A DNA stretch of 64,000 bases from Candidatus Kapaibacterium sp. (GTDB lineage Bacteria > Bacteroidota > Ignavibacteria > Kapaibacteriales > UBA2268). Below the pieces are notes generated by a model. The model saw nothing but the letters and a program-made list of their open reading frames with translations. It did not search any database and was not told where the DNA came from. The translations under genes were made by a program, and so were the position numbers. The stretch is taken from the NCBI GenBank assembly GCA_965140345.1, contig OZ223197.1, forward strand, positions 79,481 through 143,480, in the 5' to 3' direction. Positions 1 through 38,900 of the stretch are shown here, piece after piece (the first letter of the stretch is position 1; each line of letters starts with the position of its first letter).

Positions 1-135
1 ATTATCTTTATTTTTGTCTTTATCTCTGTCTTTGTGATAAAAAGATTGGGCGGTAGCCTCAGAAGTTGGTAGAATTAAAACAACTCCGGCTACAACAATA
101 AAGCAAGCAATAACAATAACAGAAACCTTATACAT
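1..135 (-). CDS. Partial CDS (N-terminus only, continues off window): small membrane-anchored protein
   Basis: Reverse-strand ATG at 135..133; translation MYKVSVIVIACFIVVAGVVLILPTSEATAQSFYHKDRDKDKNKDN shows one hydrophobic TM/signal segment followed by a charged tail; runs off the 5' edge. Confidence 0.3.
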   Translation of the reverse strand, partial: MYKVSVIVIACFIVVAGVVLILPTSEATAQSFYHKDRDKDKNKDN

Positions 136-374
136 CTTGTCTAACATAACTCTCTCTCCATTAGTTTTTTAATTTTAGAATTATTAGGAACAGAATTTAA
201 AACTTATTTATCTATAGTAATTATTAACTAATACGAGGAGAGGCATAGTTTGTTACCAAAGTGATTGATTTTTTGTGACGGGAGAAAAGTAATCACAATA
301 TTAGCATTGTAAGACAAGTAATTAATGAGTATTTTTAGATTGCTGGTCATTGTAATATTTTTGTTGATGATAAC

Positions 375-3077
375 ATGAAAAACATAGTTGCCTACTTCGC
401 TGACTGTTATTTTGCTGATAAAAACCGTAAATATATCAGAGACATTTTTAATAAGGATATAGAATTTCTTTCCTTTATGTACGGTAAAGAAGAGCTCATC
501 AACGGCTTTTTTCCTTTTGTATCTATAGATGGAGAATATGCAGAAAGTCTTAGTAAAAAGGCATATATATACCGCAAAGAAAAGGAAATTTTATACTGCA
601 CAGGTTTATTAGTTGGAATAAAACACAATGAGCAGGGGAGTGATTTCTTTTGTTCTCCCATTTTAATGCAGAATGCAAATATATTACAAAACGATACTGA
701 ATATTCTATTGAGCTACAGCCCGGGACCTTGACATTTAATGATATGTTGATAGAAAGTATCACGGAATATGATTTACAAAATGGCAACGAGTTTCAGGAG
801 ATATTATCAGGCGAATCAGCTTTATCTAATAATTCTATTGCAACAATAACAAGACTTCTTGAAGAAAGAGTAAATAATATAAAAACTCTGGAATTTACTA
901 AGTTCCCAAATTTGATTTCTGAGAAAGAACTAAAGAGAATTATCAAAAATATCAAATCACAAAAAGACGATTATTTTGAGCTGATTCCATGCTCTTTTAT
1001 AGCTTTGGCGAATAAGCCGAATGAAGCGAGAGGTGTTGTTGATGAGCTGGATAGAATAATTCAGCAGAATGATTATTCAAAAGTGCTAAAATCTATCTTT
1101 GAGAGTAAACCTAATTCTGTTAGTAAAACCAATACTGATACTTGTTTTGTTCCCGCCGTGCTTAGTCATGCTCAGGAATCAATAATGCATTCTATTGAAA
1201 GTGGAGATCACACTTTGATAATCGGTCCTCCCGGTACCGGTAAATCATATACTATTGCTGCTTTGACTATTGAACAGCTGAATCGTGGCAAAAGTGTTCT
1301 TATTGCTTCAAAGATGAATCAAGCTGTTGATGTAATTGCAGATAAAATTCAAAATCAACTTAATATTAGCGGGTGTGTAGTTAGGGGAGGCAAGCAAAGT
1401 TATCTTAAGGAGCTGAAGGAGTTCTTAAAACGACTTCTAAATAGCATGTATAATGATGCTTCTGTTGACTCAAAAACTATAGGCAGATTAAGGAAAGAGA
1501 TTTTAAACTTAGATGTGATTATACAAAAAACTGAGAAAAAACTCGAAAAGCATAGCCAAAGTGAAATTAAATATGGAGGGGTGATTTCCGGAGAGGAAAA
1601 ATCTATTCTTTTATCTATTCAGAGTTGGTTCTTTAAATTGGGTAATAAAACTCCACTTTGGGAGATATATGAGGAATATGATGCACTTTTAAATCAAAAA
1701 ATCAGCAAGATTAGCAACTTTACCAGTGATAATAATACGCTTCGTATTAATACTTCACTTAAAAAACACAGAGCAATTCTTAATACTTTTCTTAAGGCTA
1801 TAAGCAGTAGGACTGGTGGCAAGCAAGAGGATTTATTTAATTCTATTGATTTTTCAATTTTATTACAGATCTTTCCTGTTTGGCTTGTTAATTTGAGTGA
1901 CATACATAAAGTTCTACCTCTGAAAAAAGAACTATTTGATGTTGTAATCATCGATGAAGCCACACAGTGTGATGTTGCTTCATGTGTACCTGCTCTGCAA
2001 AGAGCAAAGAAAGCAGTTATAGCAGGAGACCCTAACCAACTTAGGCATATTTCATTCCTATCAAAAGCAAAGCAGGCTGAGTTTCTTGCAAAGTATGAGA
2101 TGGCAGAAACATCAGAATACGATTACAGAAATACTTCAATTTTGGATTTGTTCGCTGAGAAAATTCAAAGCCAGGAAAATGTTATTTTTCTTAATGAGCA
2201 TTATCGTTCTTTGCCTGATATTATTAGTTTTTCTAACAGAGAGTTTTATGATTCTCGTCTAAAAATAATGACTGAAAAGCCTATAAATTATAGAAAAAGA
2301 CCAGTGATATTTCACAATTGCAAAGATGGCAGAAGAAATGAATCCGGTTATAATGAAGTAGAGGCAAAGGCAATTATAGAAAAGATTAAACTTATAATAG
2401 AAAGTCAAGAACTAACGCCACCGAGCATTGGAATATTATCGCCCTTTAGAAAACAGGTGGATCACATTTCTTCAGAAATATTGAAAAACTTCTCTTTAGA
2501 TACTATAAACAGATATAATATTTTGGTTGGAACAGCCCATTCATTTCAGGGAGAAGAGCGGGACATAATGTTTATATCTCTGTCAGTTGATGCAGATTCT
2601 CATAGTGCAAGCTTCCGTTTTATAGATAATCCAAATGTCTTTAATGTTGCCATAACACGTGCTAAATCGGAACAATATATATTTCATTCCATAGAGAAGC
2701 AGCACTTAAAGCCCGGTGCAATGCTTTATAAATTTTTCGACTACTATCAGAATCCGGTACATAAGAAGCTAGATAATCATAATAAAGTCTTCGACAAATT
2801 CGCAAAAGATGTCTGCGAAGTTCTGAATAAACATAATATATCCACACAAGTAGCACTTCCAATTGCGGGGCACACAATGGATATAGTTGCGAATAACGAT
2901 CACAAAGCCATCGGCATTGATCTAATCGGCTTCCCCGGAGATTTTGCAGAGGCTTACCCTGTGGAAAGATACAAAATGTTCAATCGTGCCGGCATGAAAG
3001 TGATACCACTCCCATACTCAAATTGGGTGAATTCAAGAGAAGAATCGATTCAGTATGTATTGAAGAGTTTGAGGTAA
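375..3077 (+). CDS. SF1B (Upf1/Dna2/AAA_11-AAA_12-like) helicase with N-terminal ~270-aa domain of unknown function and C-terminal Vsr/DUF559-like restriction-endonuclease-fold domain
   Basis: Q-motif-like LSHAQESIMHSI, Walker A LIIGPPGTGKSYTIAAL, Walker B VVIIDEATQC, AAA_12 motifs HYRSLPDIISFSNREFY and VGTAHSFQGEERDIMFISL, TRA at ITRAKS; C-terminal TMDIVANNDHKAIGIDLIGFPGD...ERYKMFNRAGMKVIPLPYSNW resembles DUF559/Vsr endonuclease core. Confidence 0.8.
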   Translation: MKNIVAYFADCYFADKNRKYIRDIFNKDIEFLSFMYGKEELINGFFPFVSIDGEYAESLSKKAYIYRKEKEILYCTGLLVGIKHNEQGSDFFCSPILMQNANILQNDTEYSIELQPGTLTFNDMLIESITEYDLQNGNEFQEILSGESALSNNSIATITRLLEERVNNIKTLEFTKFPNLISEKELKRIIKNIKSQKDDYFELIPCSFIALANKPNEARGVVDELDRIIQQNDYSKVLKSIFESKPNSVSKTNTDTCFVPAVLSHAQESIMHSIESGDHTLIIGPPGTGKSYTIAALTIEQLNRGKSVLIASKMNQAVDVIADKIQNQLNISGCVVRGGKQSYLKELKEFLKRLLNSMYNDASVDSKTIGRLRKEILNLDVIIQKTEKKLEKHSQSEIKYGGVISGEEKSILLSIQSWFFKLGNKTPLWEIYEEYDALLNQKISKISNFTSDNNTLRINTSLKKHRAILNTFLKAISSRTGGKQEDLFNSIDFSILLQIFPVWLVNLSDIHKVLPLKKELFDVVIIDEATQCDVASCVPALQRAKKAVIAGDPNQLRHISFLSKAKQAEFLAKYEMAETSEYDYRNTSILDLFAEKIQSQENVIFLNEHYRSLPDIISFSNREFYDSRLKIMTEKPINYRKRPVIFHNCKDGRRNESGYNEVEAKAIIEKIKLIIESQELTPPSIGILSPFRKQVDHISSEILKNFSLDTINRYNILVGTAHSFQGEERDIMFISLSVDADSHSASFRFIDNPNVFNVAITRAKSEQYIFHSIEKQHLKPGAMLYKFFDYYQNPVHKKLDNHNKVFDKFAKDVCEVLNKHNISTQVALPIAGHTMDIVANNDHKAIGIDLIGFPGDFAEAYPVERYKMFNRAGMKVIPLPYSNWVNSREESIQYVLKSLR

Positions 3078-3126
3078 GGGGTAGGGTTGAAATTGGTTGT
3101 TATGAAATTATTAAAGGGAATTAGAC

Positions 3127-3663
3127 ATGGAAAAATTTGATCCAAAAATCTATCATGTAGATAGACATGACCATGTGTTAAAGGAAGGTGAGGACGTTGA
3201 CTTTATTAGTTATTATGATGTTAGTCATGATGATGTAGACTTTGAGTTGAAAGATAAATATTTTAGAGAAGAGGACAGACTTATTGCTTTTTTGATTGAT
3301 ATCTTTTTAGATGGTAGAAGTGTATCGGAATTGTTGATAAAAGGAGAATCTCAATGGGATATTGATCGACATGAAATGAAAACACTGGACAAGCAACATG
3401 TAGAAATATTGAAGATGTTATATAAAAGTGATGAGGAGTTTAGGATTGAATCTAAAGAAGATTTAATATTATTACTAACATTATCACTTAGAGAGCGTAT
3501 TAAAACAAAGATAAAGTTTACTGAGATGATATTTTCTTCTGGATATGATTTGTGTTTATACTTCCAGAATATTGATTATCAATATTTGAAAAGATTTGTA
3601 GAAAAGCATCAACTTCATATTTTGGGTAGTTGGTATTTGGATATATGGGATGATACATTTTAG
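3127..3663 (+). CDS. Hypothetical acidic protein, co-operonic with the upstream helicase-nuclease
   Basis: 178-aa ORF 50 bp downstream of helicase stop, same strand, followed by a strong rho-independent terminator; Asp/Glu/His-rich N-terminus (YHVDRHDHVLKEGEDVDFISYYDVSHDDVDFE); no recognisable domain. Confidence 0.5.
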   Translation: MEKFDPKIYHVDRHDHVLKEGEDVDFISYYDVSHDDVDFELKDKYFREEDRLIAFLIDIFLDGRSVSELLIKGESQWDIDRHEMKTLDKQHVEILKMLYKSDEEFRIESKEDLILLLTLSLRERIKTKIKFTEMIFSSGYDLCLYFQNIDYQYLKRFVEKHQLHILGSWYLDIWDDTF

Positions 3664-3715
3664 GAGGCAGTGTAAAAAAAACTCTGTCTTTCTTATATCT
3701 AAAGAAAAAAAATCT

Positions 3716-3763
3716 AGGATGTGATAGAAAAGATATTACTTTTTGTATCACATCCTTTTTTTT
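3716..3763. terminator. Rho-independent terminator (bidirectional position between convergent genes)
   Basis: Inverted repeat aGGATGTGATAga...tGTATCACATCCt (10-bp perfect stem) followed by T7 run; sits between + strand ORF end (3663) and - strand LRR gene end (3819). Confidence 0.75.
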
Positions 3764-3766
3764 CCC

Positions 3767-3791
3767 CTGCACAAAAACAACCAGTTAGTAT
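3767..3791 (+). repeat. Direct repeat copy A (CTGCACAAAAACAACCAGTTAGTAT) flanking the LRR gene
   Basis: 23/25 identical to copy at 5278..5302 (CTGCACAAAAACAACCACTCAGTAT); same orientation; the two copies bracket the 3819..5186 LRR gene. Confidence 0.7.
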
Positions 3792-3818
3792 ATTATAATA
3801 CAAAAGATCATTTGTTCT

Positions 3819-5186
3819 TTAAATATAAATAATTATCTGACCTTCCTGATTGTAACTCGGGAAATAAGAAAATAACTTTAATTTTTCTTCTTCATTCAAA
3901 GCATTGAATCCAAGATCAAGATGTTTTAGGTTTGTTAAATTGTGCATTGATTGTGGTACTTTCGTAAGTTTATTATAAAATAAATCTAAAGACTGAAGTT
4001 GTGTCAGATTCCCAAAAGATTCTGGTATGCTACTAAGCATATTTTCGTGAAGACTAATCTCTTTTAGTTGTTCAAGTTTACTTAATGATTCCGGAAAAAA
4101 TTTTAGAGAATTGTTCCCCAAAAATAATGATTTTAGGTTTGAACATTTTTGTATAGTATCAGGTATTTCCGTTAGATTGTTTTCAGCTACACTTAGCCAT
4201 TCAAGCTTAGATAAATTGCCTATAGCCTCTGGTAGATGATGTATTTCATTTTCAGTTAAATCCAGTTTTAGTAGGCTATGAAGAAGTCCAATCGCATCAG
4301 AAATATTCTCCATTTCATTTGCAGAAAAATTCAAATCTTGAAGATTCTTTAAAAGAGTAATTGTTTCCGGGAAAGATGAAAAGTTATTACAGCTTAAATC
4401 AAGCTCTCTAAGGTTTGGTAAGTCACCACTTTTTAAAGATATATTTTTTAATAAGTTAGACCTGAGATTCAGTTCTTCAAGATTTATAATTTCACCAAAA
4501 GATGCAGGTAAAAATTCGATACTGTTTGATTCTAAATTTAATTTCCTAAGCTGTTTTAAATTGCCGATTGAATCAGGTAAATGGTCAATCTTTGTATAGC
4601 TCAAATTTAGTTCTATAAGAGTGTCTAATTTACCAATAGTATTATCGATATTTATATTAAGATTATGTGCTAAATTGAGACTTACAATACTCTTCAGATT
4701 ACTTATTAACTGTGGCAATTCAGTAAGTTTATTATTAAATAATGTAAGCTTTCTAAGTTTGACTAGTTTCCCGATTGATTCAGGCAGGTTTGATAAATTA
4801 TTAGAATAGATACTAAGAGTTGTCAGATTTTCTAAATTACCTATAGACTCAGGTAAATCAGTAAGCTGGTTTTCACCTAAATTCAGTTCCTTAAGATTAG
4901 TCATAAAACCGATAGAGTCAGGCAAACTAGTCAATTCATTTCTACTTAAATCGAGTGAAGTTAGGTTTGTAAGCTTTCTAATTGATTCAGGTAAATGTGT
5001 AATGCCTCTATAGCTTAAATTAAGTTCTGTTGGGTTAGATTGAATTATTTCTTCTAAAACTTCTTTAGATATTGTTTTAGGGGGGTCTTCAATTCTTGAA
5101 ATTTCTGTAGATCTTCCTGTTTCAGTTTCTCTTATAGTCCAAAGTAGACCATTTCTTTCATATTGCTCAATTATCTTATCTGCCAT
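3819..5186 (-). CDS. Leucine-rich repeat (LRR) protein, no signal peptide (cytoplasmic LRR-only protein)
   Basis: About 17 tandem 23-residue LRRs of the form LxxLxxLxLxxNxLxxLPxSIGxLxx (e.g. LTNLTSLDLSRNELTSLPDSIGFMTNLKELNLGENQLTDLPESIGNLENL); N-terminus MADKIIEQYERNGLLWTIRETETGR lacks hydrophobic leader. Confidence 0.9.
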   Translation of the reverse strand: MADKIIEQYERNGLLWTIRETETGRSTEISRIEDPPKTISKEVLEEIIQSNPTELNLSYRGITHLPESIRKLTNLTSLDLSRNELTSLPDSIGFMTNLKELNLGENQLTDLPESIGNLENLTTLSIYSNNLSNLPESIGKLVKLRKLTLFNNKLTELPQLISNLKSIVSLNLAHNLNINIDNTIGKLDTLIELNLSYTKIDHLPDSIGNLKQLRKLNLESNSIEFLPASFGEIINLEELNLRSNLLKNISLKSGDLPNLRELDLSCNNFSSFPETITLLKNLQDLNFSANEMENISDAIGLLHSLLKLDLTENEIHHLPEAIGNLSKLEWLSVAENNLTEIPDTIQKCSNLKSLFLGNNSLKFFPESLSKLEQLKEISLHENMLSSIPESFGNLTQLQSLDLFYNKLTKVPQSMHNLTNLKHLDLGFNALNEEEKLKLFSYFPSYNQEGQIIIYI

Positions 5187-5277
5187 TGCTTTATTTAGAT
5201 TGTACTTAGAAAATTGTAAAGTTTAAAGGAATACGATATAGCTTATAGTTTGTTACTATAGTAATGTATTTAAAAGT

Positions 5278-5302
5278 CTGCACAAAAACAACCACTCAGT
5301 AT
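5278..5302 (+). repeat. Direct repeat copy B (CTGCACAAAAACAACCACTCAGTAT), ~90 bp upstream of LRR gene start
   Basis: See copy A; located in the LRR gene 5' region / flagellar operon upstream region. Confidence 0.7.
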
Positions 5303-5525
5303 GCTAATATTGTGCATTGGCTAAAAATGTACTGCTTTTATTACTCATCTTTTTATCAGGTTTCTATACCATTATAAATGTGGAAAAGCTTGTAAGATCT
5401 TTATTGTCAAGTAAATATGAATTTTGGAACTTCCAGATTTGTTTAAACTCTTAAAACTTGGTATCAATTTTATACCTGTATGTGGGAAGATAATTCAGGA
5501 TGGACAATAATAACAGTTATTTGAC

Positions 5526-5798
5526 ATGGAAAAGAAAAACTTCAGAGATGCCATGAACTTACTTTTTGAAGCAAAGGACGCGCAAATAGAAGTAAGCAAT
5601 GCAGGACGCAAAGGCTCTCTTACTAGAAGTATCATCTCACTTAATCGCAAAAGGAATTTGGATATCGAGAGAGATGATCAGATAATGAAACTATTGGCGA
5701 AGCTGGAGGCGAAAGGAAATGTGCCTATCAGACTTCACGATGCAATAGCAGATATTGTAGGAAAGATGTTTTTAAATAGCAGTCGGGCTTTTTCATAA
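5526..5798 (+). CDS. Hypothetical small protein immediately upstream of flgF (possible flagellar accessory/regulatory protein)
   Basis: 90-aa ORF co-directional with flagellar rod genes, 27 bp before flgF; no convincing FlgM signature. Confidence 0.4.
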   Translation: MEKKNFRDAMNLLFEAKDAQIEVSNAGRKGSLTRSIISLNRKRNLDIERDDQIMKLLAKLEAKGNVPIRLHDAIADIVGKMFLNSSRAFS

Positions 5799-5825
5799 TA
5801 GAAATAAGATGCAGGAAGCAGCAAA

Positions 5826-6605
5826 ATGTTAAAGGAATTATTCACAGCGGCTCTTGGTATGCAAAATCAGCATACTAAACTTGAAGTAACAGCTAATAAC
5901 TTATCTAATGCAAATACTTCAGGCTATAAGCGTTCAGAAGCTTTTGAGCGTAACCTTATAGATGCCCGCGCTAATTTCTATAACACGCCCGGCGATGTTG
6001 AACAAAATGACCCGCCAATCGGTTCTTATGTCGATTATTCAGCAGGAAGCTTTAATCAGACTGAAAACCAATTGGATGTGGCGATTGAAAATAAGGGATT
6101 TTTTGCACTCCAGGATGGAGAAGGAAAGAAATTTCTTACTCGTGCCGGAAGGTTTAAAGTTACTGAAGACGGAACAATTACTGCCATGGATGGCAAGACC
6201 TTACTGGGCAAGGAAGGCCCCATAAATGTATTTCAAGAGTTCATGGAAGAAGGTACAGCAAACATGGATGTTCGCTCTCTTGAAATTAAAATTAATGAAA
6301 AAGGTCAGGTCTTTGCAAATGCCAAGGAAGTAGGTTCTATCGCAATTTATAACCCGAAGGACGAAAAAACTTTGCAACGTATCTCTAACTCTGAATTTAT
6401 AGCTACAAATTGGTCTGATATAGAAGAACTGGACGAAAGTCAGATGACTCTAAGGCAAGGATGGCTGGAAGGATCAAACGTAAATGTAGTAAATGAAATG
6501 ATAGAGATGATTGAGCTTCAAAGGATGTTCGAAGCAGGAAGCAAAGTAATTAAGACAAATGATGACACCCTTACTAATAGTATTCGCCTGGGCAGATATT
6601 ATTAA
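5826..6605 (+). CDS. flgF: Flagellar basal-body rod protein FlgF
   Basis: N-terminal rod motif LGMQNQHTKLEVTANNLSNANTSGYKR and C-terminal LRQGWLEGSNVNVVNEMIEMIELQRMFEAGSKVIKTNDD (FlgF/FlgG family termini); position upstream of flgG. Confidence 0.85.
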   Translation: MLKELFTAALGMQNQHTKLEVTANNLSNANTSGYKRSEAFERNLIDARANFYNTPGDVEQNDPPIGSYVDYSAGSFNQTENQLDVAIENKGFFALQDGEGKKFLTRAGRFKVTEDGTITAMDGKTLLGKEGPINVFQEFMEEGTANMDVRSLEIKINEKGQVFANAKEVGSIAIYNPKDEKTLQRISNSEFIATNWSDIEELDESQMTLRQGWLEGSNVNVVNEMIEMIELQRMFEAGSKVIKTNDDTLTNSIRLGRYY

Positions 6606-6641
6606 TGGATTAATATTCTAAATGTTACATGGAGGTAACTT

Positions 6642-7430
6642 ATGGATAAGACGCTACGCACAGCATCGACCGGCTTATCTGCCCAGCAGCGTTATGTAGA
6701 GATTATCTCTAATAACCTTGCCAATGTAAATACGACCGGTTTCAAAAAAGTAAGACCTGAATTTCAGGATTTGTTATACGAGACTCTTCGCCCGGCAGGC
6801 AATGTTGCAAGAAGTGGGGTAGAGCCTCTTAATGAAGTTCAAATCGGTTCAGGTACAGAACTTACTGCTACTACTAAACATTTCGGTAATGGTGTTGTAG
6901 AATCTACAAATAACCAGCTTGACATGGCAATTGACGGTAATGGTTTTTTTGTACTTCAAAAGCCTGACAATAGCTTTGCATATACACGCGACGGTTCATT
7001 CAAACTAAATAAAAACGGCGTTATTGTAAATAACCAAGGTTATGCGCTTGATCCCGGTTTCACAATTCCTTCTGATGCAATTGAAGTTAGCGTATCTCCT
7101 GATGGCGTAGTAAGTTATTTATCAGAAAATTCTACACAGTTTAATACACTTGGACAATTATCCCTAGCTAGGTTCATTAATCCTGCCGGCTTAAGAGCTG
7201 AAGGTAATAACCTTTATCTGGAAACTCCTGCTTCAGGGGATGCTGTATTTGAAGTCCCCGGTGAAAATAACACAGGCCAGGTTCTTCAATCACACCTGGA
7301 ATCATCAAATGTAGATATAGTAGAAGAAATGGTAAATATGATCACTGCTCAAAGAGCGTATGAATTAAACTCTAAATCTGTGCAAACTGCAGACAGTATT
7401 TTAAGTACAGCAGTTGGGCTTAAACGCTAA
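6642..7430 (+). CDS. flgG: Flagellar basal-body distal rod protein FlgG
   Basis: MDKTLRTASTGLSAQQRYVEIISNNLANVNTTGFKK ... LQSHLESSNVDIVEEMVNMITAQRAYELNSKSVQTADSIL; 262 aa typical FlgG length. Confidence 0.9.
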   Translation: MDKTLRTASTGLSAQQRYVEIISNNLANVNTTGFKKVRPEFQDLLYETLRPAGNVARSGVEPLNEVQIGSGTELTATTKHFGNGVVESTNNQLDMAIDGNGFFVLQKPDNSFAYTRDGSFKLNKNGVIVNNQGYALDPGFTIPSDAIEVSVSPDGVVSYLSENSTQFNTLGQLSLARFINPAGLRAEGNNLYLETPASGDAVFEVPGENNTGQVLQSHLESSNVDIVEEMVNMITAQRAYELNSKSVQTADSILSTAVGLKR

Positions 7431-8155
7431 TGAAAATATTTTTTACATATAGCCTGTTTTTGTTTTTGCTTGCGTATGCAGGCAATGCAGCTTCTACTTT
7501 CAAAGGCGAAAGACTGGAAGCTGCTGCAAAAAGCTATATAGAATCTAAACTTGAAGGTGATTTTGAAGTAAAAACTTTCGGTCTAACCGATGATGTAGTT
7601 ATAGATAAAGATAATATACATGCAGAAATAAAAGAATCAGCTGATTTGAAAGGGATAATATCAGTTCCTATCATTTTCAAATCAGGTGACAAAGTAGAAA
7701 AATCTATTTCGGTGAAGCTCGAAGTTAAAACATTTGAGTTAGTTCCGGTAGCCTCAAAATATCTTAAGCAAGGCGACGAAATAACATCTCAAGATTTTAC
7801 TTTGAATCGCATTGAAACATCGTTATTAAAAAAACAGAATTATAACTCAAATGAGCTTATTGGCAGAACTATGGCGAAAAATGTTCGCAGTGGTGAACCT
7901 ATAGCTCTCAGCGACACTAAAGGGCCATTACTCATCAAACGTGGTGATGTAGTGGAGCTGTCCGTTATTTCCGGTGCTGTAAGAATCAGAGCAAATGCTG
8001 TTTCATTACAGGACGCATCTGCCGGAGATCGGGTTCGGATTAAAAGAGATGGCGAGAGCAAAGTATTACAGGGAATCGTTGCCAGAGATGGCAGCGTTCT
8101 AATAGCTCCGCCTGAATACTACAAGGATGTATCATCAATTTCAGGGACGAAATGA
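7430..8155 (+). CDS. flgA: Flagellar P-ring assembly chaperone FlgA (SAF-domain)
   Basis: Signal peptide; C-terminal IKRGDVVELSVISGAVRIRANAVSLQDASAGDRVRIKRDGESKVLQGIV matches FlgA/CpaB SAF beta-clip; ATGA start overlap with flgG stop and with flgH start. Confidence 0.8.
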   Translation: MKIFFTYSLFLFLLAYAGNAASTFKGERLEAAAKSYIESKLEGDFEVKTFGLTDDVVIDKDNIHAEIKESADLKGIISVPIIFKSGDKVEKSISVKLEVKTFELVPVASKYLKQGDEITSQDFTLNRIETSLLKKQNYNSNELIGRTMAKNVRSGEPIALSDTKGPLLIKRGDVVELSVISGAVRIRANAVSLQDASAGDRVRIKRDGESKVLQGIVARDGSVLIAPPEYYKDVSSISGTK

Positions 8156-9870: not shown

Positions 9871-10752
9871 ATGAATGTTACTGAATTAAATAATCTGTCT
9901 AACGGCGAATCCTTATTCAAATCTAAGCTGAATCAGCTTAGTGGAGTAAAATCTATTTCTGTAAAAAGAGATTTGAGCAAAGAGGAGAGAGCACAGTACG
10001 AAAAAGCAGCTCGTGGCTTTGAATCTATGTTTGTTAATATGCTTATCAAACAAATGAAAAGCTCAATGCTGGAAGATAAAAAAGAAGAAACAACATTCGG
10101 CGCGGATACATTAGGTGGTTATACTGACATGCTTCTATCAGATGATATTTCTAAAACCGGAAAAGGTATCGGTATCGCTGAGATGGTTTTTAAACAACTA
10201 ACAGGCGGTCAGGAAATCAGTAATATAACAAACTCTGTAGAGGGATATTCTGATTTAATTAGACATAATTCAATTCCGATCTTTGAAGAACAATCAGAAG
10301 CCAAAGAAGTAAATAAAGTAGTAAAGACTCTAAGTTCAAATAGCTTGAGTGACAGAATAGAACAATATATGCCGATAATTCAAGATGCGGCAAGTAAATT
10401 TGGTATATCGGAAAATTTGATAAAAAGTGTTATTAGAACCGAGTCTGCAGGCAAACATGACGCTGTTTCACCGGTTGGTGCAAAAGGTCTTATGCAGCTG
10501 ATGGATGGGACTGCAAGTGACATGGGAGTAGAAGACTCTTTCGATCCTAAGCAAAATATTATGGGTGGAGCAAAATACTTAAAATATTTGATGGATCGTT
10601 TTGAAAATGACACTGAAACTGCACTAGCTGCATATAATGCAGGTCCGGGCAATGTTGAGAAGTATGGAGGAATTCCTCCTTTCAACGAAACACAAAATTA
10701 TGTAAAAAAAGTGCTTAATTATCTCGGTAAATATGACGAGAACTTAAAGTAG
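9871..10752 (+). CDS. flgJ: FlgJ-like protein: N-terminal rod-binding domain fused to C-terminal SLT-family lytic transglycosylase
   Basis: Rod-binding motif EKAARGFESMFVNMLIKQMKSS near N-terminus; SLT domain ES(A)G motif IRTESAGKHDAVSPVGAKGLMQLMDGTASD and AYNAGPGNVEKYGGIPPFNETQNYVKKV at C-terminus. Confidence 0.8.
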   Translation: MNVTELNNLSNGESLFKSKLNQLSGVKSISVKRDLSKEERAQYEKAARGFESMFVNMLIKQMKSSMLEDKKEETTFGADTLGGYTDMLLSDDISKTGKGIGIAEMVFKQLTGGQEISNITNSVEGYSDLIRHNSIPIFEEQSEAKEVNKVVKTLSSNSLSDRIEQYMPIIQDAASKFGISENLIKSVIRTESAGKHDAVSPVGAKGLMQLMDGTASDMGVEDSFDPKQNIMGGAKYLKYLMDRFENDTETALAAYNAGPGNVEKYGGIPPFNETQNYVKKVLNYLGKYDENLK

Positions 10753-29991: not shown

Positions 29992-32900
29992 ATGAAAAAC
30001 TTAATAGAATTATTGGCAAACATCAGAAACAGCTCTAAAGGAATAACATTTTATACTAGCACAGGAACATCTGAATTTTATTCTTACCAATATTTATATC
30101 TTTCATCTCAGTCTAGACTTCAACATTTTAATCAGAATAATATAGATTCTTCTTTTCAGGCGGTTTTTCAAATCTCTTCAGATAAAAACTTTATTGAATC
30201 ACTATGGGCTTGTATCCTTGGTGGAATTACAGTTGTTCCATTACCTCTAGCCGATAGTAAGGAATCAGAGCAAAAATTAAGGAATATATTAGACTTACTT
30301 GATAACCCTATTATTCTAAGTGATTCTGATGCTATAATTGAAGACTATGATGCAATAGATGTTTCCGAGACTTTTGTAGAATCTGAAATTGAATTAGAGT
30401 TTAAATCTCAAAATCCACTTCTGATTCAATTTTCATCCGGTTCGACAGGCTCACCTAAAGGAGTCATTGTATCGCATGAAAATTTAATTTCAAATCTGGA
30501 ATCAATGAGAACAACTTTGGAGTTCAGGAAAGATGAAGTTTTTCTTTCATGGGCACCACTGACCCATAGTTCAGGTATGATACTCGCACACTTGAATGCC
30601 GTCAGAGGCGATTATAATCAGATTCAAATAGAACGTCAGGCTTTCATTTCTAATCCTTTAAACTGGATCTATCTGACAGATAAACATAAAGCTACATTTA
30701 TTTTTGCACCAAATTTTGGTTACAAATATTTTTTATCTGCATTGGATAAAAAAGTTAATTACGAATGGGATCTAAGTTCTGTGCGATATATTATGAATGG
30801 CTCAGAACAAATCTCTGCTGAAATAGCAAATGAGTTTACCTACACTCTTTCAAAATATAGACTAAATTCTAAAGCTATGACTACCATATATGGCCTGGCT
30901 GAAGCAACACTCGCTGTCAGTTGCGAATCAATTTATGAAGAGCTTCAATATCTGAATGTAAATAGGAATTCTATAAATCTTGGTGGTTCTATAGAAGTAA
31001 GTAAAGATGACAAAAACTCACTCAAACTTGTATCACAAGGTAAAGCTGTAGCAAATACTCAGATTAGAATATTCGATGAAGAAGTTCTTTCTGACAATAT
31101 GGTAGGAGAGATTCAGGTTAGAAGTGATTCTGTTATATCATCCTATTATAAAAATCCAACTGCTACAGAATCTTTACTAACTCCTGATTCTTGGCTTAAA
31201 ACAGGTGACTTAGGATTTTTAAGAGATGGTAAGTTATATGTATGCGGAAGACAGAAAGAACTTATAATCATCAACGGAATAAATTACTACCCTGATGATA
31301 TAGAAAGGCAACTTGCTTCTTTAATTGATATCTCTCAAAATCATATTATAGTCTCTTCAAAAATAAATGAGACAAGTGGAACGGAAGAAATTGTATGCGG
31401 AGTTGCTTCTGAGAGAGATTTAGATGTAGAATCGATAAAAAAGAATTTCATTGCTAAATACGGTATTGTTATATCTCACATTAGAAAAATCGAATCGATA
31501 CCAACTACTTCAAACGGTAAGAAACAGAGAATCAAGTTCGCTAAAGACTTCATTATTGAGCATGATAAAACTGATAATAATATCAGTATCAATAATTTGG
31601 ATCTTTGGCAAATTAGAGATGTTATAATCAAAGTGGCAGAGAAATTTGTAGAAAGCAATTTTGATTCGAATAAAAACTTTGCTCTTCAGGGATTCAACTC
31701 CATTAAAACAGTTGAATTTGTTTCTGACTTGTCTAAAATACTGAATATAAATTTAGATGCATTCGTAGTTTTTAATAATCCTGATGTACAATCTTTAAGC
31801 AATTATATAAGCTCAAAGATGAGTTATTTGGAAGCTAAAAAAGATATATCTGAAGATCAGAATTATGAAGATATCGCTATCATTGGTATAGATTGCAGAT
31901 TTCCAAAAGCTAAAAATGCAGATGAGTTCTATAGAAATCTGATAAGCCACATTGATTGTATTTCAGAGATTCCAAAATCGCGTTGGGATGTATCAAAAAT
32001 AGCTGATTCTAAGATCAAGGAGATACCAAATTATGGAGGTTTCCTATCTGACTTTGATCTTTTTGACAATGAATTCTTTAATATCCTACCAATTGAAGCA
32101 AAATCCCTTGATCCTCAGCAACGCCTGCTTTTGGAAACAACAATACATGCTCTGGAAGATGCAAATATTAAAATTGAAGATATTCGTAATTCAGATTGTG
32201 GAGTCTATGTAGGAATCGCAAACAGTGATTATGCGGCAGTAGAAGCAAAATCTTCTGAACTTCAAAAAATAACACCTTACAGTTTCACGGGTTACACTCC
32301 AAGCACTGCCGCAGGTAGAATTTCTTATTTTCTAGGTTTACATGGTCCAAACTTAGCAATAGATACAGCTTGCTCTTCATCGCTCGCGGCATTGCATTAT
32401 GCATCTCGTGGTATTCAAAATAAAGAATGTAAACTGGCTATTGTATCCGGAGTAAATCTTATTCTAAGTCCGGAAATGAATATTGGGCTTTATGAAATGG
32501 GAGTGCTTTCTGAAGATGGCAGATGCAAAACATTTGATAAAAAAGCCAATGGATATGTCCGTTCTGAAGGCTGTGCAACTCTAATTATTAAAAGTTTAAA
32601 ACAAGCAGAGGAAGATGGAGACAGAGTTTATGGTGTGGTTAAAGCGTCTGCTCTATCTCATGATGGTGCTAGCAACGGTTTAACTGCTCCAAACGGTGTG
32701 GCACAAGTCAAAGTAATGCAAAAATCTTTGGGAATCGCAAAGCTACATGCTAAAGATATAAACTACTTTGAAGCACATGGCACAGGCACAGTTGTTGGAG
32801 ATTTGCAGGAACTTAATTCAATAAGTGAATTATGCGGAAAGATAGAACCTCATCAGAAAGTTGGTGCTGTTAAATCAAATATAGGTCATACTGAAGCGGC

Positions 32901-35900
32901 AGCAGGTCTTGCGGGTGTTATTAAAATTCTAAAAGCTTATGAAAAAGGTACACTGCCGGGGAATCTACATTTCAATCACTTACCTGAAAATTCTCATGTA
33001 GATATTTCTGATTCTAATATAGTATCTAAAAATATTGATATTTTTGAACTTCTCAGTGAAGCAAATTCTGATAAGCTCAGAGCTTCAATCAATTCATTCG
33101 GATATAGTGGAACGAATGTCAATCTGATTCTGGAGCAATACCCAAATGCTAATATAAAAACGAAAGTAACACATTCTTCTAATGCAATCCGAGTATTACC
33201 ATTAACAGCAAAAACTAGCGAATCTCTGGATAAAACCATGCAAGCATACTCCGAATTGCTAAATAAAGAAGCTATACATATCGATGATTTAATTGCAAAT
33301 CTAGAGCTTTTTAGAGACAAGTATAAGCATAGAGCAGCTATAGTTTCTACTAATTCGAATATTATTGATATCCTTTCAGATCCTACTTCTAGCAAGATTA
33401 AATACAAAGTACTGAAAAGTAGTAGTATAACAGAAAGTAAGGGTATTGTTTTTACCTATCCAGGTGGCGGAGCTCAGCGTCTTAAAATGGGGCAGGAGCT
33501 TATACAAAAAGACTCAGTTTTTGCAGATAATATGCTCAAGTGTGATAAATTGTTATCTAATTACCTCAATACATCTATAATTGATATAATCAACAATAAC
33601 AAAGAAAAACTCGGTAAACTTGAGTTTGCTCAGCCAGCGCTTTTTGCAATTGAATATTCTCTAAGTCAGATGTTTGTTTCTTATGGATTAACTCCGCAAG
33701 CTGTAATAGGGCATAGCACGGGTGAGTATGCTGCAGCGTGCATTGCGGGGATTATCTCACTGGAAGATGCTGTAAAAATGATCTCTGTCAGAGCTAAACT
33801 TATGGATAGCATTGACACAAAAGGCAAAATGGTTGCTGTATATACTAATTCTGAAACAGTTGGGAAATATCTGACTGATTATCAGAAATATGTAAGTATA
33901 GCTACTATTAATTCTTCTGAAAATGTTGTTATATCAGGTAGTAGCGAAAAAGTTGATGAGATCGTTCAAAAAATTAAAGCAGACGGTATTGAATTCAAAG
34001 AACTCAAGATCTCACAAGCTTCACATTCACCGATTATGGAAGAAATTATTGATCCATATAGAGAAGCGATTAAATATATTGAATTTAAAGAAGCAAAGAT
34101 TGATTACTACAACAATATAACAGGAAAGAAGCTTGAAAAAGGAACTATCTTAGATGCAGAATATTGGTGTAATCATATTCTGGAATGTGTAAATTTTGCT
34201 GCTTCATTACAAAATATCCGAGAAGACGGATTCCATATATTCCTTGAATTAGGACCATCTCCTGTATTGACAGGGGTAGGTTTGCAGGATTATCCGGATG
34301 ATCTTTTTATATCAGCATTTGCTAAAGACTTTGATGAATACGAACAAATACAGCGTGTTCTAGGAGAACTTTATGTAAATGGTATTGATTTAAGCTTTTC
34401 TAAAATATATAAGATAGAGCAATTTAATAAGATAGAATTGCCGAAATATCAATTCTCTCAAAAGCGTTTTTATCAGGATCCAAATCATGGTCTTTATAAA
34501 CAAAACAATCAAATATATCAAACTGTTACAAGTATTCCGGAGCAAGTAAAGATGAAAACATCAAGAAACTATAAGAACGAAATTCTTGAAATTATTGCTG
34601 ATAAAACCGGATTAGAGAAAGAACAGCTTGATATCAATACCGGATTTTTCCAAATGGGAATGGATTCGCTTACTTTAGTGAAAATGAGGCAAGAGATAAA
34701 CAAAAAGTATGCTATTTCTGTCTCAATGACTGATTTGGTTAAAAACTATGATACAGTATCCAAGCTTTCTGAATTTGTAAGCAGCAATATGCCTGAAGAA
34801 CCGGAAGTGATTGAAAATTCTACTTATGAGCCGGTACAGCCTTTACAAAACCATCAACAAACAAGCTCTAATCAAAATGTTAGTTATGTTGAATCCATAA
34901 TTCAGCAGCAAATGCAAATAATGCAACAGCAGCTGAATTTACTTCAAAATTCGGCGCAAGTAATTTCTGAACCAGTTCAACAAAAGAAAGTCAAGAAACA
35001 AAGCAAACCTACAAATTTCAGATCTCTAAAGCTGGATGGTGACAATTTAAGCGTTGAGCAGGAAAAGTTTATAAATGATTTGATTGAAAAATACAATCAT
35101 AAAACTAAAAGCTCGATGGAATATGCTCAAAAGCATAGAAAGCACCTCTGTGATTGGATAAATACTCTTTCTTTCCGCTTTAGTCTAAAAAAAATGAGCT
35201 ATCCTTTTGTTTCTTCCAGATCTGAAGGCGGTTATGTTTGGGATTTAGATGGTAATAAATACATTGATATAGCTAATGGTTATGGAGTTCACTTCTTCGG
35301 TCATAGACCAAAATTTGTAGAAGAAGCTATTTTGCAGCAAATAGACAAAGGCTTTGAACTTGGTCCACAATCTGCAATTGTAGGTGAGACAGCGGAACTT
35401 CTTGCTCGCCTCAGTAAAAACGAAAGGGTTACTTTCTGTAACACGGGCTCTGAAGCTATCATGGTCGCTATTAGAGTAGCACGTGCAAAGACAGGTAGAG
35501 ATGAAATAGTGATCTTTGGTGGTTCTTATCATGGTACATTTGACGGCGTACTAGCTGTCCCTGATGATGATGGTGATTCACGCCCTGTTTCCATTGGTGT
35601 TCCTGAAGGTATGGTAGAGAATGTAAAAGTCTTAGATTATGGTTCTGATGAAGCTTTAGAATATATTAAAATCAAAAGCCAAAATATTGCTGCAGTTATC
35701 TGCGAACCAGTTCAAAGTAGAAAACCGCATTTACAACCTAAGGAGTTTATAAAAGAACTCAGAGAAATCACTCAAAACTCTGGGACTACTCTGATCTTTG
35801 ATGAAGTTGTAAACGGGTTTAGAATTTCAGCCGGAGGGGCTCAGGAATTTTATGGTATAAAAGCTGATTTGGTTACTTATGGCAAAGTAATTGGCGGTGG

Positions 35901-38900
35901 TATGCCATTGGGAGTACTTGCCGGAAAAGCTGAATTCCTTGATTATATTGATGGAGGAAATTGGGATTTTGCTGATAACTCTGTACCTGAAAATGATATA
36001 ATATTTTTTGGAGGCACTTTTTGTAAACATCCTCTTACAATGGCTGCGTGCAATGCAGTATTGAAAAAAATAGAAAAAGAAGGGGACGAGCTATATAACA
36101 GACTAAATAGTATGACTGCTGATTTTGCAGATAAAGCGAATAAGTTATTCAAAGAACTACGAGTTCCCTTGACTTGTACTTACTTTGCATCTCAGTTTCG
36201 CATAGATGGTCAAAACGAATACAGCTTACTTTTAAAACCTATTGAGCTCGATATATTCTTCTACTTGATGATATACAAAGGTGTTTATTTCTGGGAAAGA
36301 AAGGTAAACTTCTTCTCCACTGAAACATCTAAAGAAGATGTAGAATACATCCTGAAAGCGATGCGCGAAGCTCTTACGGAAATGATTGATAATGGGTTCT
36401 TTCCTGATGAAACTAGAAAAATATCTCCAATTAAAATAATGGAAGCTTCTACATCTCAAAAGAGAATGTTCCTATTAAGTCAGTATGAAGGTGGAGAAAT
36501 AGCTTATCATATCACACTTCCATTTTTAGTAAAAGGCAAACTAGAAACCAATAAACTTGAAGCAGCTATAAGCAAAATTGTTGATCGCCATGAAATATTA
36601 CGTACTAAATTTTATCTGAAAGATAGTAAGATAATAAGCGAAGTAGTTGATAATTATGATTTTAAATTGACTCATTTTGAAATAGAAGATGATTTACAAA
36701 GTGGAATAAATAAGTTTATTCAAAGCTTTGATTTATCTTCATTACCACTATTTAGATTTGGTTTGGCTAAGATAAATGAAAACGAGCATCTACTTGTTTT
36801 GGATATCCATCATATTATCTTCGATGGTCTTTCTATTGCTGTTCTGATAGATGAATTGTGCAAGTTCTATGTTGGTGAAGAAGTTGACTATCAGCCAGTA
36901 CAATTTAAGAGATTTTTGAATTTAGAAGAAAAGTATTTTGGCAGCAAAGATTTTCAAATCGATAAAGAATATTGGCTTGAAAATCTAAAAGATTTGCCAG
37001 TAGCCGCTGATTTACTTCATGATTTTAGCAGACCACCAAAAACAACATTTGAAGGTGATCAGTTACATTTTCAAATAGATTCTGAATTAACAACTAAGAT
37101 ATTTAAATATTCTAGAGAAAAAGGAATTACTCTAAATACCGTACTTCTAAGTGCTTATGCCTTGATGTTAAATAAACTATCCGGTGCAGAGGATTTTGTT
37201 ATAGGTTGTCCTGCTTCTATTAGATCAATAGATGATGATCTTGATACTGCAATTGGTCTGATGGCTAATACAGTTCCTCACAGAATCAAATTGGATAAAA
37301 TTCAAAAGTTCTCAGAATTTGCTCAAAAGCAAGCTATACAAACAACTGAAAATTATGAGCATTCCATATATCCAATTGAAAAGATTATTGAAGACCTTGC
37401 TCTTGAAAATTATGGCAATAGGCATCCTTTGTTTGATTCTCTTTTCATTTTTGAAGCAGCTGATAGTAGGCTTTTTGATATAGAAGGACTTAGCTTTGAA
37501 AGATATAAATATCAGAAACAAACAACAATGTCCGATCTGGTATTTGAAGCTATAAAAGAGTCCGGTGTTATAAATTGTAGTATTGAATATGATAAGAATC
37601 TATTTGAAAAAGCTACGATTCAGAGATTTATAGTTTATTATAATAATATTCTTTCTCAGATAATATCTGATAACGATGTTTCAATTCAAGATGTTAACAT
37701 AATTCCTGAAAAAGAATATCAAATACTAAAATCCGGATTGATGGATTATAATCATGAGGCAAAACTAGAATCAGCTTTAGATATATTTACAAAAAATGTA
37801 GCTAATAATCCTTATAAAAAAGCTGTAATTACCTCTGATAAAACTATTCTTTATAAAGATTTAGATAAATTATCTAATTCCATTGCTTATCATATTCAAA
37901 ATAATATCAACAGAACAGATGCAAAAGTTGCATTGCTCTTGGATAGAAATGAATACTTAATAGCAGCTATTCTTGCATGCTATAAACTTGGAGTTCCTTA
38001 TATTCCATTAGATAAAAGTACTCCTCAAGAACGCAATGAGTACATTTTGCAAGACTCTATGGCTGATTTGCTTATCACCGAAGATGATATGAAAATATCC
38101 ATTCCACAACTTCATTTGAGTGGAATTGATTTTTCTGAAGATCACATTGTAGAGTATAATTCTGATTTAAATTCTCTAGCGTATATCACTTATACTTCAG
38201 GTTCTACAGGAAAGCCCAAAGGTGTAATTATCCGACAAGAGAATATAGTTGCGTTTGTAGATAACTTTGATAAAGTCTTTAATTTCCAGAGAGATGAAAA
38301 AATTCTTGCAGTTACAACTGTCTCTTTTGACATCTCGAATCTTGAAATTATCTGCTCTCTACTTTACGGAATGACAGTTGTTCTCGCTTCTGACGCTGAA
38401 ATCAATAATCTAAATCTGCTCAAGGAATTATGTCACATAAACCATATTGAGAATATTCAGTTAACTCCCAGCCGCTGCAATCTTTTATATCAGGAACTAG
38501 GCAAACCATTCTTAACAAGCTTTAAAACAATTCTTGTTGGTGGTGAAGCAATGCCTAAATCACTGTATAATGAACTTAAACACTTCAAAAATACCAGAGT
38601 CATAAACGTTTACGGGCCAACAGAAACTACTATTTGGTCGAGCTCTAAGCTGATTAATGATAGTGAATTGAATATCGGTAGAGCCTTAGTCGGAGAGAAA
38701 ATCTTTATATTGGATCAAGAGAATAATCCTGTACCAATCGGCGTCAAAGGTGATATATGTATAGCAGGAACAGGAGTAGGAAATGGTTATTATAATCGCA
38801 AAGATCTTACAAAAGATAGATTTATAAAAGCTGATTTTATTGATGATATAATCTATAAAACAGGTGATATAGGAAGGATCAATAATAACCTTGAAGTGGA

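Follow-up and report, generated by a model that had tools for sequence, protein, structure and literature searches.

Several described anti-phage systems are built around helicases of the Upf1-like type that are fused to, or paired with, a nuclease. Hhe (DUF4011-helicase-Vsr; Gao et al. 2020) is a single-protein system of ~1800-1900 aa, in which an N-terminal DUF4011 domain is followed by AAA_11/AAA_12 helicase domains, a nuclease of the MTES_1575/Vsr fold and C-terminal extensions. Mokosh (Millman et al. 2022) combines a Upf1-like COG1112 helicase with a nuclease, either as the MkoA and MkoB proteins of type I or as the MkoC protein of type II. Both Hhe and Mokosh have been validated experimentally, and defence needs the helicase as well as the nuclease sites. 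A further architecture is that of CnuH from the type III-B CoCoNuT systems (Bell et al. 2024, PMC11090510), in which the Upf1-like motor is interrupted behind Walker A by a large helical insertion and is fused directly to a Vsr-like nuclease. Here, we describe a related gene (375..3077, + strand) in a stretch of 64,000 nt from Candidatus Kapaibacterium sp. (assembly GCA_965140345.1, contig OZ223197.1, positions 79,481 to 143,480), hereafter referred to as the window. The gene encodes a 900-aa helicase with a nuclease-fold tail, and this protein works alone. We consider it best explained as the product of a solo, rare and old family of fixed architecture, whose most likely role would be nucleic-acid targeting in conflict or defence; we place the chance that this explanation is correct marginally below even.

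Domain architecture and comparison with described systems

A preliminary description of the window had listed two open reading frames (ORFs) of 900 and 178 aa, and both exist at the coordinates it gave. Its three-part layout for the longer product was also borne out, comprising an N-domain without a known family, a complete Upf1-like SF1B helicase core, and a C-terminus with the restriction endonuclease (REase) fold of the Vsr family. The gene is real, because hundreds of full-length homologues (coverage 98-100%) occur in at least eight phyla and the ratio of non-synonymous to synonymous substitution rates (dN/dS) among Kapabacteria was ~0.06 in all three domains, indicating strong purifying selection.

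The helicase core extends over residues ~259-795 (1149..2759, + strand), where the Pfam models AAA_11 (residues 267-557; 7.7e-24) and AAA_12 (residues 592-769; 8.1e-30) both exceeded their gathering scores. An alignment of 32 full-length homologues showed invariant motifs GPPGTGK (284-290), DEA (527-529), GDPxQL (551-556), QGxERD (725-730) and TRA (761-763); in the Walker A motif GPPGTGKS (residues 284-291; 1224..1247, + strand), the final S291 is nearly invariant. The AlphaFold2 (AF2) model of the full protein (predicted local distance difference test score, pLDDT, 84.8; predicted template modelling score, pTM, 0.77) had its best Foldseek matches in the PDB with SETX, Sen1, UPF1, IGHMBP2, Aquarius, Dna2 and ZNFX1 (E 1e-26 to 1e-18). 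With intact Walker A and B motifs, motifs III-VI and a Upf1-type fold, the core is that of a Upf1-like SF1B helicase. The likeness to eukaryotic Upf1, SETX, IGHMBP2 and Dna2 lies in the motor-domain fold, whereas the CH, 1B beta-barrel and Dna2-type nuclease domains are absent from the 900-aa protein, whose N- and C-domains are bacterial and family-specific. RecA1 carries an all-helical, stalk- or coiled-coil-like insertion of ~160 residues (~340-500; 1392..1874, + strand), for which AF2 predicted helices at residues 341-356, 366-404, 411-423, 428-464, 466-477, 481-490 and 493-499. A comparable helical insertion has been described for the CnuH helicases (PMC11090510).

The N-domain (residues 1-258; 375..1148, + strand) is an alpha/beta domain with a confidently modelled fold (pLDDT 86.9). 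It had no family match in Pfam, NCBIfam, PADLOC or PHROGs, sequence and profile searches of the PDB were empty, and Foldseek gave no match against the PDB (best E 0.068). A profile of the domain found only 620 matches in 1.84 billion representative proteins. Among the best 150 of these, the domain was N-terminal in all cases, full-length proteins were ~900 aa long, and shorter ones look like truncated copies. Because of this search, we regard the domain as private to one fixed architecture and the family as rare. The residues C11, D15, E69, G81, P95, N122, P178 and G220 are invariant, and the domain may serve as a sensor or in substrate recognition.

The C-terminal domain (residues 796-900; 2760..3074, + strand) appears to be a divergent member of the MTES_1575 family (PF18741), which was defined as a novel Vsr-fold REase by Anantharaman et al. 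(2013) and belongs to the PD-(D/E)xK nucleases. PF18741 matched residues 809-898 over profile positions 1-95 of 96, at 6.2e-05 and 23.4 bits versus a gathering score of 38.2. It matched 22 of 28 C-terminal domains of the family at E ≤ 0.01 (best 1.3e-8), and a profile of these domains had no match in the PDB. Three relatives with a canonical active site were aligned, namely a BREX-adjacent PDC-S37-like protein from Acinetobacter, one from a Variovorax plasmid and one from a Fusobacterium record. In these, helix 1 has EFE, strand 2 has ID and strand 3 has ECDG..H, whereas the 900-aa family reads KFA in alpha-1 and GIDLIGFPG in beta-3, with D836 and D849 kept. D836 (beta-2) is invariant in the family, D807 and D849 are nearly so, and further acidic positions are semi-conserved. 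Purifying selection acts on the domain (dN/dS 0.06-0.13), which is therefore functional.

The strongest match to a PADLOC model was MkoA (3.3e-49), followed by PDC-S37 (9e-48; residues 498-843), MkoC (4.7e-47) and Hhe (6.8e-21), and NCBIfam matches were obtained for ProA (2.1e-45) and Hhe (8.6e-28; residues ~496-837). Judged by these alignments, Hhe, PDC-S37, MkoA/MkoC and ProA contain regions homologous to the motor and the C-terminal fold. Like Hhe, the 900-aa protein has AAA_11/AAA_12 followed by an MTES_1575/Vsr fold, but it is about half the size, its N-domain is unrelated, it ends at the nuclease fold and the nuclease motif is altered. The NCBIfam Hhe model NF042953 scored 96.3 bits with partial coverage, versus a cut-off of 2000. 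DUF4011 had no Pfam match in the 900-aa protein at E ≤ 0.1, and no Hhe-sized protein was present among the best 150 N-domain matches.

The Upf1-like COG1112 helicase joined to a nuclease is shared with Mokosh. Unlike Mokosh, the 900-aa protein has a nuclease fold of the Vsr type and no PLD or kinase domain, and the Mokosh matches span the helicase core only. PLDc had no Pfam match in the protein, the neighbours in the window are the genes for the 178-aa protein and a leucine-rich repeat (LRR) protein, and a PLD neighbour was found in three of ~78 family loci. Resembling type I Mokosh, PLD-like genes of Cryomorpha ignava (L049, 358-1035) and Ectopseudomonas composti (L080, 9291-9977) directly adjoin the start of the helicase gene, at distances of 1 or -1 nt. 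The two PLD-like proteins (226-229 aa, PLDc_2) match the DrmC/MkoB models and are 41% identical across different phyla. These two loci possibly represent a Mokosh-type-I-like two-gene variant of the family.

CnuH shares the Upf1-like motor, the helical insertion and the fused Vsr-like nuclease, whereas the 900-aa gene stands alone: no operon with McrB/McrC (CnuB/CnuC) and no Sul7s-like winged helix-turn-helix or OB domain were detected. Genes for McrB-like GTPases or McrC were absent from the window, and the family loci contained no conserved neighbour family. The PADLOC candidate system PDC-S37 aligns with the 900-aa protein over helicase and nuclease fold, but is ~1550 aa long with other N-terminal regions and the canonical ECDG..H motif. 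A PDC-S37-like protein (1576 aa) is encoded on the Acinetobacter plasmid pYUSHP14-1 (L091, 1-7359) directly downstream of BREX-1 pglZ and brxL, and aligns to residues 501-899 at 28% identity, from helicase domain 2A into the nuclease fold. This BREX-1 neighbourhood is an argument that the larger relatives of the family act in defence.

The preliminary description had called the locus Nhi-like. Nhi (Bari et al. 2022) is likewise one polypeptide in which a PD-(D/E)xK-type nuclease fold is joined to an SF1 helicase. It is ~610 aa long, its nuclease is N-terminal and HsdR-like, and its helicase is of the DUF2075 type (PMC11232893). The 900-aa protein has the opposite domain order, with a C-terminal Vsr-type fold and an AAA_11/AAA_12 helicase, and the label fails on domain order, nuclease type and helicase subfamily alike. 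Consistent with this distinction, the Pfam model PF09848 reached 18.1 bits against a cut-off of 24 and covered the P-loop alone (residues 281-355). We take PF09848 to be the former DUF2075. No Nhi model was among the 15 PADLOC matches at E ≤ 0.1, the inclusion of such a model in the library being unverified. Hhe, type II Mokosh and the CnuH type III-B architecture are the closest functional analogues.

Distribution and neighbourhoods of the family

The family is carried by at least 296 species. We compared 80 loci, each from another species and together covering at least eight phyla, in which ORFs were called and all neighbours were clustered. No neighbour family recurred across these loci, aside from the synteny of close Kapabacteria. 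Another Kapabacteria chromosome, with a helicase 71% identical to that of the window (L008), had no neighbours in common with it. Three further contexts on long contigs look chromosomal; mobile or defence-like genes occur there only sporadically and at a distance of several kb. Among the first neighbours, the matches to PADLOC models were two OLD/AriA-like genes (both in Kapabacteria) and three PLD-like genes.

Several individual loci deserve mention. Giant DUF3686/DUF7902/AAA_5 proteins (~1660-1790 aa, annotated as 'ATPase involved in DNA repair') are encoded a few genes from the helicase in three distantly related genomes, L026 (3913-8931), L080 (3373-8730) and L090 (1-4558), and in L090 a gene for a LexA/S24-like helix-turn-helix repressor lies immediately upstream of the helicase. 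The family member appears split in L006 (4241-6942; 296 + 604 aa), and in L053 a 170-aa N-terminal fragment is present (9983-10492); these are either pseudogenes in the making or frameshifts of the assemblies. A hidden upstream partner in Gammaproteobacteria, suggested by genes of ~220 aa, was rejected, as these encode unrelated Nudix, alpha/beta hydrolase, short-chain dehydrogenase/reductase, Lgt and PLD proteins. Nearby giant genes were also rejected as signs of defence islands, being mostly alpha-2-macroglobulins and cargo of the type IX secretion system.

The strain-variable slot and the 178-aa gene

Downstream of the helicase, the window contains a strain-variable segment that extends from the helicase stop to the conserved leader of the flagellar operon (3081..5276, unstranded). 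The DNA of the window and of the sister locus L001 is colinear over 1-3080 (97%) and 5277-8000 (98.9%). Colinearity ends at 3080 and thus breaks off 3 bp beyond the stop codon of the helicase gene. The segment is a hot spot of replacement at strain level and corresponds to 12707-14903 in L001, 12710-15690 in L002 and 14611-17480 in L005. In L001, it holds a convergent gene for a 616-aa OLD/AriAB-like ATPase-Toprim protein (AriAB, 6e-29), in L002 and L004 genes for an AriA-like ATPase (3.6e-61) and an Abi_C protein, and in L005 tetratricopeptide repeat and unknown genes. Thus, OLD/PARIS-like genes occupy the slot adjacent to the helicase in two of four distinct Kapabacteria arrangements. A Gabija-like pairing of the helicase with an OLD-like ATPase was rejected, as the ATPase gene is missing from the window and from ~78 other loci and is convergent in L001.

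In the window, the slot contains the gene for the 178-aa protein (3127..3663, + strand), a hairpin and an inserted LRR gene. The hairpin (3709..3763, unstranded; inverted repeat I1), preceded by an A-run and followed by a T-run, has the form of a bidirectional intrinsic terminator and folds at -22.9 kcal/mol (z = -6.1); our terminator scan missed it owing to a loop-size rule. It is kept in L002, L005 and partly in L001, just ahead of the motif CTGCACAAAAACAACC, and is the ancestral right end of the slot. The preliminary description had regarded helicase and 178-aa gene as a terminator-bounded unit. A strong hairpin does follow the 178-aa gene, but it marks the ancestral right end of the slot in all relatives and is not a boundary specific to the pair.

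Beyond the hairpin, two copies of a 25-nt direct repeat (3767..3791, left copy; 5278..5302, right and ancestral copy; both unstranded; repeat family D7, 92% identical) flank an insert of 1486 nt (3792-5277), which confirms the repeat-flanked LRR gene reported earlier. The repeat motif CTGCACAAAAACAACCA[G/C]T[T/C]AGTAT occurs as a single copy in L001, L002 and L005, directly after the conserved hairpin. The insert looks like either a target-site duplication event or the site-specific insertion of a cassette. Its gene (3819..5186, - strand), convergent with the helicase, encodes a 455-aa LRR protein (LRR_8, 3.4e-53) with XopL-like NCBIfam matches below cut-off and no PADLOC match. The 178-aa and LRR genes are unrelated strain-specific insertions into the variable slot.

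The 178-aa protein is acidic (40 D+E, 25 K+R, 8 H; pI 4.9) and had no family match in Pfam, NCBIfam, PADLOC or PHROGs. Only two homologues were found in 5.8 billion proteins, and an exact-sequence look-up of P0121, which is 100% identical to it, returned no record. Compared with its homologue in L005, the gene has a dN/dS of 0.16 and is thus a genuine gene under purifying selection. It is missing from L001 (98% identical) and from L002 and L004, whose helicases are 73% identical; in L005 (helicase 88% identical), the homologue lies two genes upstream of the helicase with another gene in between. Neither co-occurrence nor order is conserved among relatives, and the partner role that had been assigned to the 178-aa protein was not borne out. 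The 49-nt gap between the two genes is unstructured (-2.9 kcal/mol, z = -0.08), for which reason they are probably co-transcribed in this strain, through an accident of insertion; their co-transcription and shared termination are physically plausible. A scan for sigma-70 promoters found 33, compared to 27.4 in shuffled sequences, and thus no excess. We conclude that the 178-aa gene is strain-specific cargo and not a partner of the helicase.

The flagellar rod/ring operon begins at 5526, beyond the LRR gene. Between flgN and flgK, this operon contains a gene for a 117-aa four-helix-bundle protein of the 23S_rRNA_IVP family (PF05635; 11229-11582), which is kept in L001, L002 and L004. Farther downstream, three ORFs (29992-42303, 4103 aa; 45036-54272, 3078 aa; 54670-61368, 2232 aa) form a hybrid cluster of polyketide synthase and non-ribosomal peptide synthetase genes. 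The domain order, KS-AT-ACP-aminotransferase-C-A-T followed by multiple C-A-T modules and a terminal thioesterase, points to a gene cluster for the biosynthesis of a lipopeptide-type product, here in a Kapabacteria genome.

Candidate roles of the family

We propose that the 900-aa protein would act as a stand-alone helicase with a nuclease-like domain. The N-domain would recognise a nucleic-acid substrate or gate access to it, the ATP-driven motor would move along single-stranded DNA or RNA in the 5'->3' direction, and the C-terminal domain would then cut, or at least grip, the substrate. Defence or conflict is ranked first, above genome maintenance, because of the homology to Hhe, PDC-S37, MkoA/MkoC and ProA, the rarity of the family, the loss of synteny beyond close relatives and the slot with OLD/PARIS-like cargo; it comes close to an even call. 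The patchy occurrence of the family, including the divergent second copy in L017, also counts in favour of this role, as do the BREX-1 neighbourhood of the PDC-S37-like relative, the experimental validation of Hhe and Mokosh, the solo status of the gene and the Mokosh-I-like pairs seen in a minority of genomes. A more specific version of this role is a 'mini-Hhe', a hitherto unrecognised stand-alone immune protein whose structurally novel N-domain would sense a nucleic-acid or protein cue of the invader and thereby license the Upf1-like motor and the remodelled Vsr-fold nuclease. The family would then be of ancient origin and, atypically for defence genes, passed on mainly by vertical descent in several phyla. 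We offer this version tentatively, with clearly less confidence than the broader assignment.

Several observations weigh against a defence role. The protein missed the curated cut-offs of all named defence families in PADLOC and NCBIfam. In four Kapabacteria lineages, the helicase gene holds the same position beside the flagellar operon at a dN/dS of ~0.06, and such positional stability exceeds that of typical defence genes. Matches to PADLOC models were obtained for only ~5 of the 148 immediate neighbours and for only a few of the 147 second neighbours, counts which have no formal background comparison, and the defence content around the gene appears to be near background. The first neighbours were instead mixed and mostly ordinary, including genes for beta-lactamase-fold proteins, PheT, SurE, TonB receptors, sulfatases and major facilitator superfamily transporters. 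Full-length members were found on no phage record and on a single plasmid, a Persicobacter megaplasmid. A neighbour-joining tree of 80 members largely tracked phylum-level taxonomy, with the exceptions of polyphyletic Bacteroidota and of L017, a second Kapaibacterium copy of only 35% identity, whose place in the tree is with Acidobacteria and Alphaproteobacteria. The descent of the family thus was mostly vertical. Finally, the canonical MTES_1575 active site is incomplete in the family, which has Gly847 in place of the beta-3 Glu, Pro854 in place of the His and KFA in place of the alpha-1 EFE. The preliminary description had placed the gene in a defence or accessory islet, and it does border a strain-variable slot. 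That description had also named synteny of a housekeeping helicase among related genomes and a lack of nearby defence genes as refuting its defence reading. We found synteny in related Kapabacteria and little defence content in ~78 other species, but the gene is not a housekeeping gene, with the N-domain in 620 clusters among 1.84 billion representatives. The defence reading is weakened by these findings, yet not overturned.

The rival that survives best is a role in genome maintenance, in which the protein would be an accessory helicase for repair, recombination or R-loop and replication conflicts, equipped with a structure-specific nuclease or DNA-binding domain, following the logic of Dna2 or SETX/Sen1 and being mostly vertically inherited and often lost. 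The taxonomic signal of the tree, the stable position and strong purifying selection in Kapabacteria and the mostly housekeeping neighbours all fit this role, as do the LexA/S24-type repressor gene in L090, the DUF3686 giants in L026, L080 and L090 and the structural matches to SETX, Sen1, UPF1 and Dna2. Moreover, Vsr itself is a repair nuclease. However, for core repair the family is much too rare and too patchily distributed, synteny is gone even between related genera, the nearest sequence relatives of known role are defence proteins, and the gene borders a slot with defence-like cargo. On balance, we consider genome maintenance less probable than defence, although a serious competitor.

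A second rival concerns the C-terminal domain, which could be a dead REase fold that only binds DNA or regulates, making the protein a translocase or remodeller and not a nuclease. Nuclease activity is unproven, because the His of the canonical site and its Glu residues in beta-3 and alpha-1 are replaced; these replacements run through the whole family, and the domain of the window falls below the Pfam gathering threshold. Against a dead fold stand the invariant D836, the nearly invariant D807 and D849 and the additional semi-conserved acidic positions. A Ralstonia relative (L094) likewise lacks the canonical Glu, and catalytic residues of PD-(D/E)xK sites are known to relocate. A dead fold seems improbable to us.

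RNA-targeting surveillance, with the Upf1-like motor acting on RNA or RNA/DNA hybrids, would be a mechanistic variant of either the defence or the maintenance role. The top structural matches SETX, Sen1, UPF1 and IGHMBP2 are RNA helicases, and RNA targets were hypothesised by the authors of both Mokosh and the CoCoNuT CnuH work. Yet the Upf1/Dna2 clade acts on single-stranded DNA too, and no RNA-binding domain of the CSD, SmpB-like or YTH type was found by Pfam in the 900-aa protein. To our knowledge, Vsr-fold nucleases are DNA enzymes in every characterised case. We regard RNA targeting as distinctly improbable. The two-gene model of the preliminary description, an Nhi-like defence module of helicase-nuclease and co-transcribed 178-aa partner, can draw on the terminator-free gap, the strong shared terminator and a real, selected gene near the helicase in two lineages, but it is largely refuted and now very improbable given the loss of the 178-aa gene from sister loci and its non-adjacent upstream position in L005, the lack of a conserved neighbour in ~80 family loci, the breakpoint directly behind the helicase and the missing Nhi-defining features.

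Whichever role applies, the finding is a modest one, as helicase-nuclease fusions are common and there is no two-gene module of the kind proposed. The fusion of a Upf1-like helicase to a Vsr-fold nuclease domain was already known; what is new in the 900-aa family is the N-domain and the remodelled active site. If the protein is a repair enzyme, it would represent a bacterial form of the Dna2/SETX logic that has not been studied so far. If it is defensive, it would constitute a compact single-gene helicase-nuclease system with a sensor domain for which neither Pfam nor the PDB nor any other library searched contains a detectable relative, and it would extend the Hhe/Mokosh/CnuH group of Upf1-like immune helicases, in parallel to eukaryotic UPF1, MOV10 and ZNFX1.

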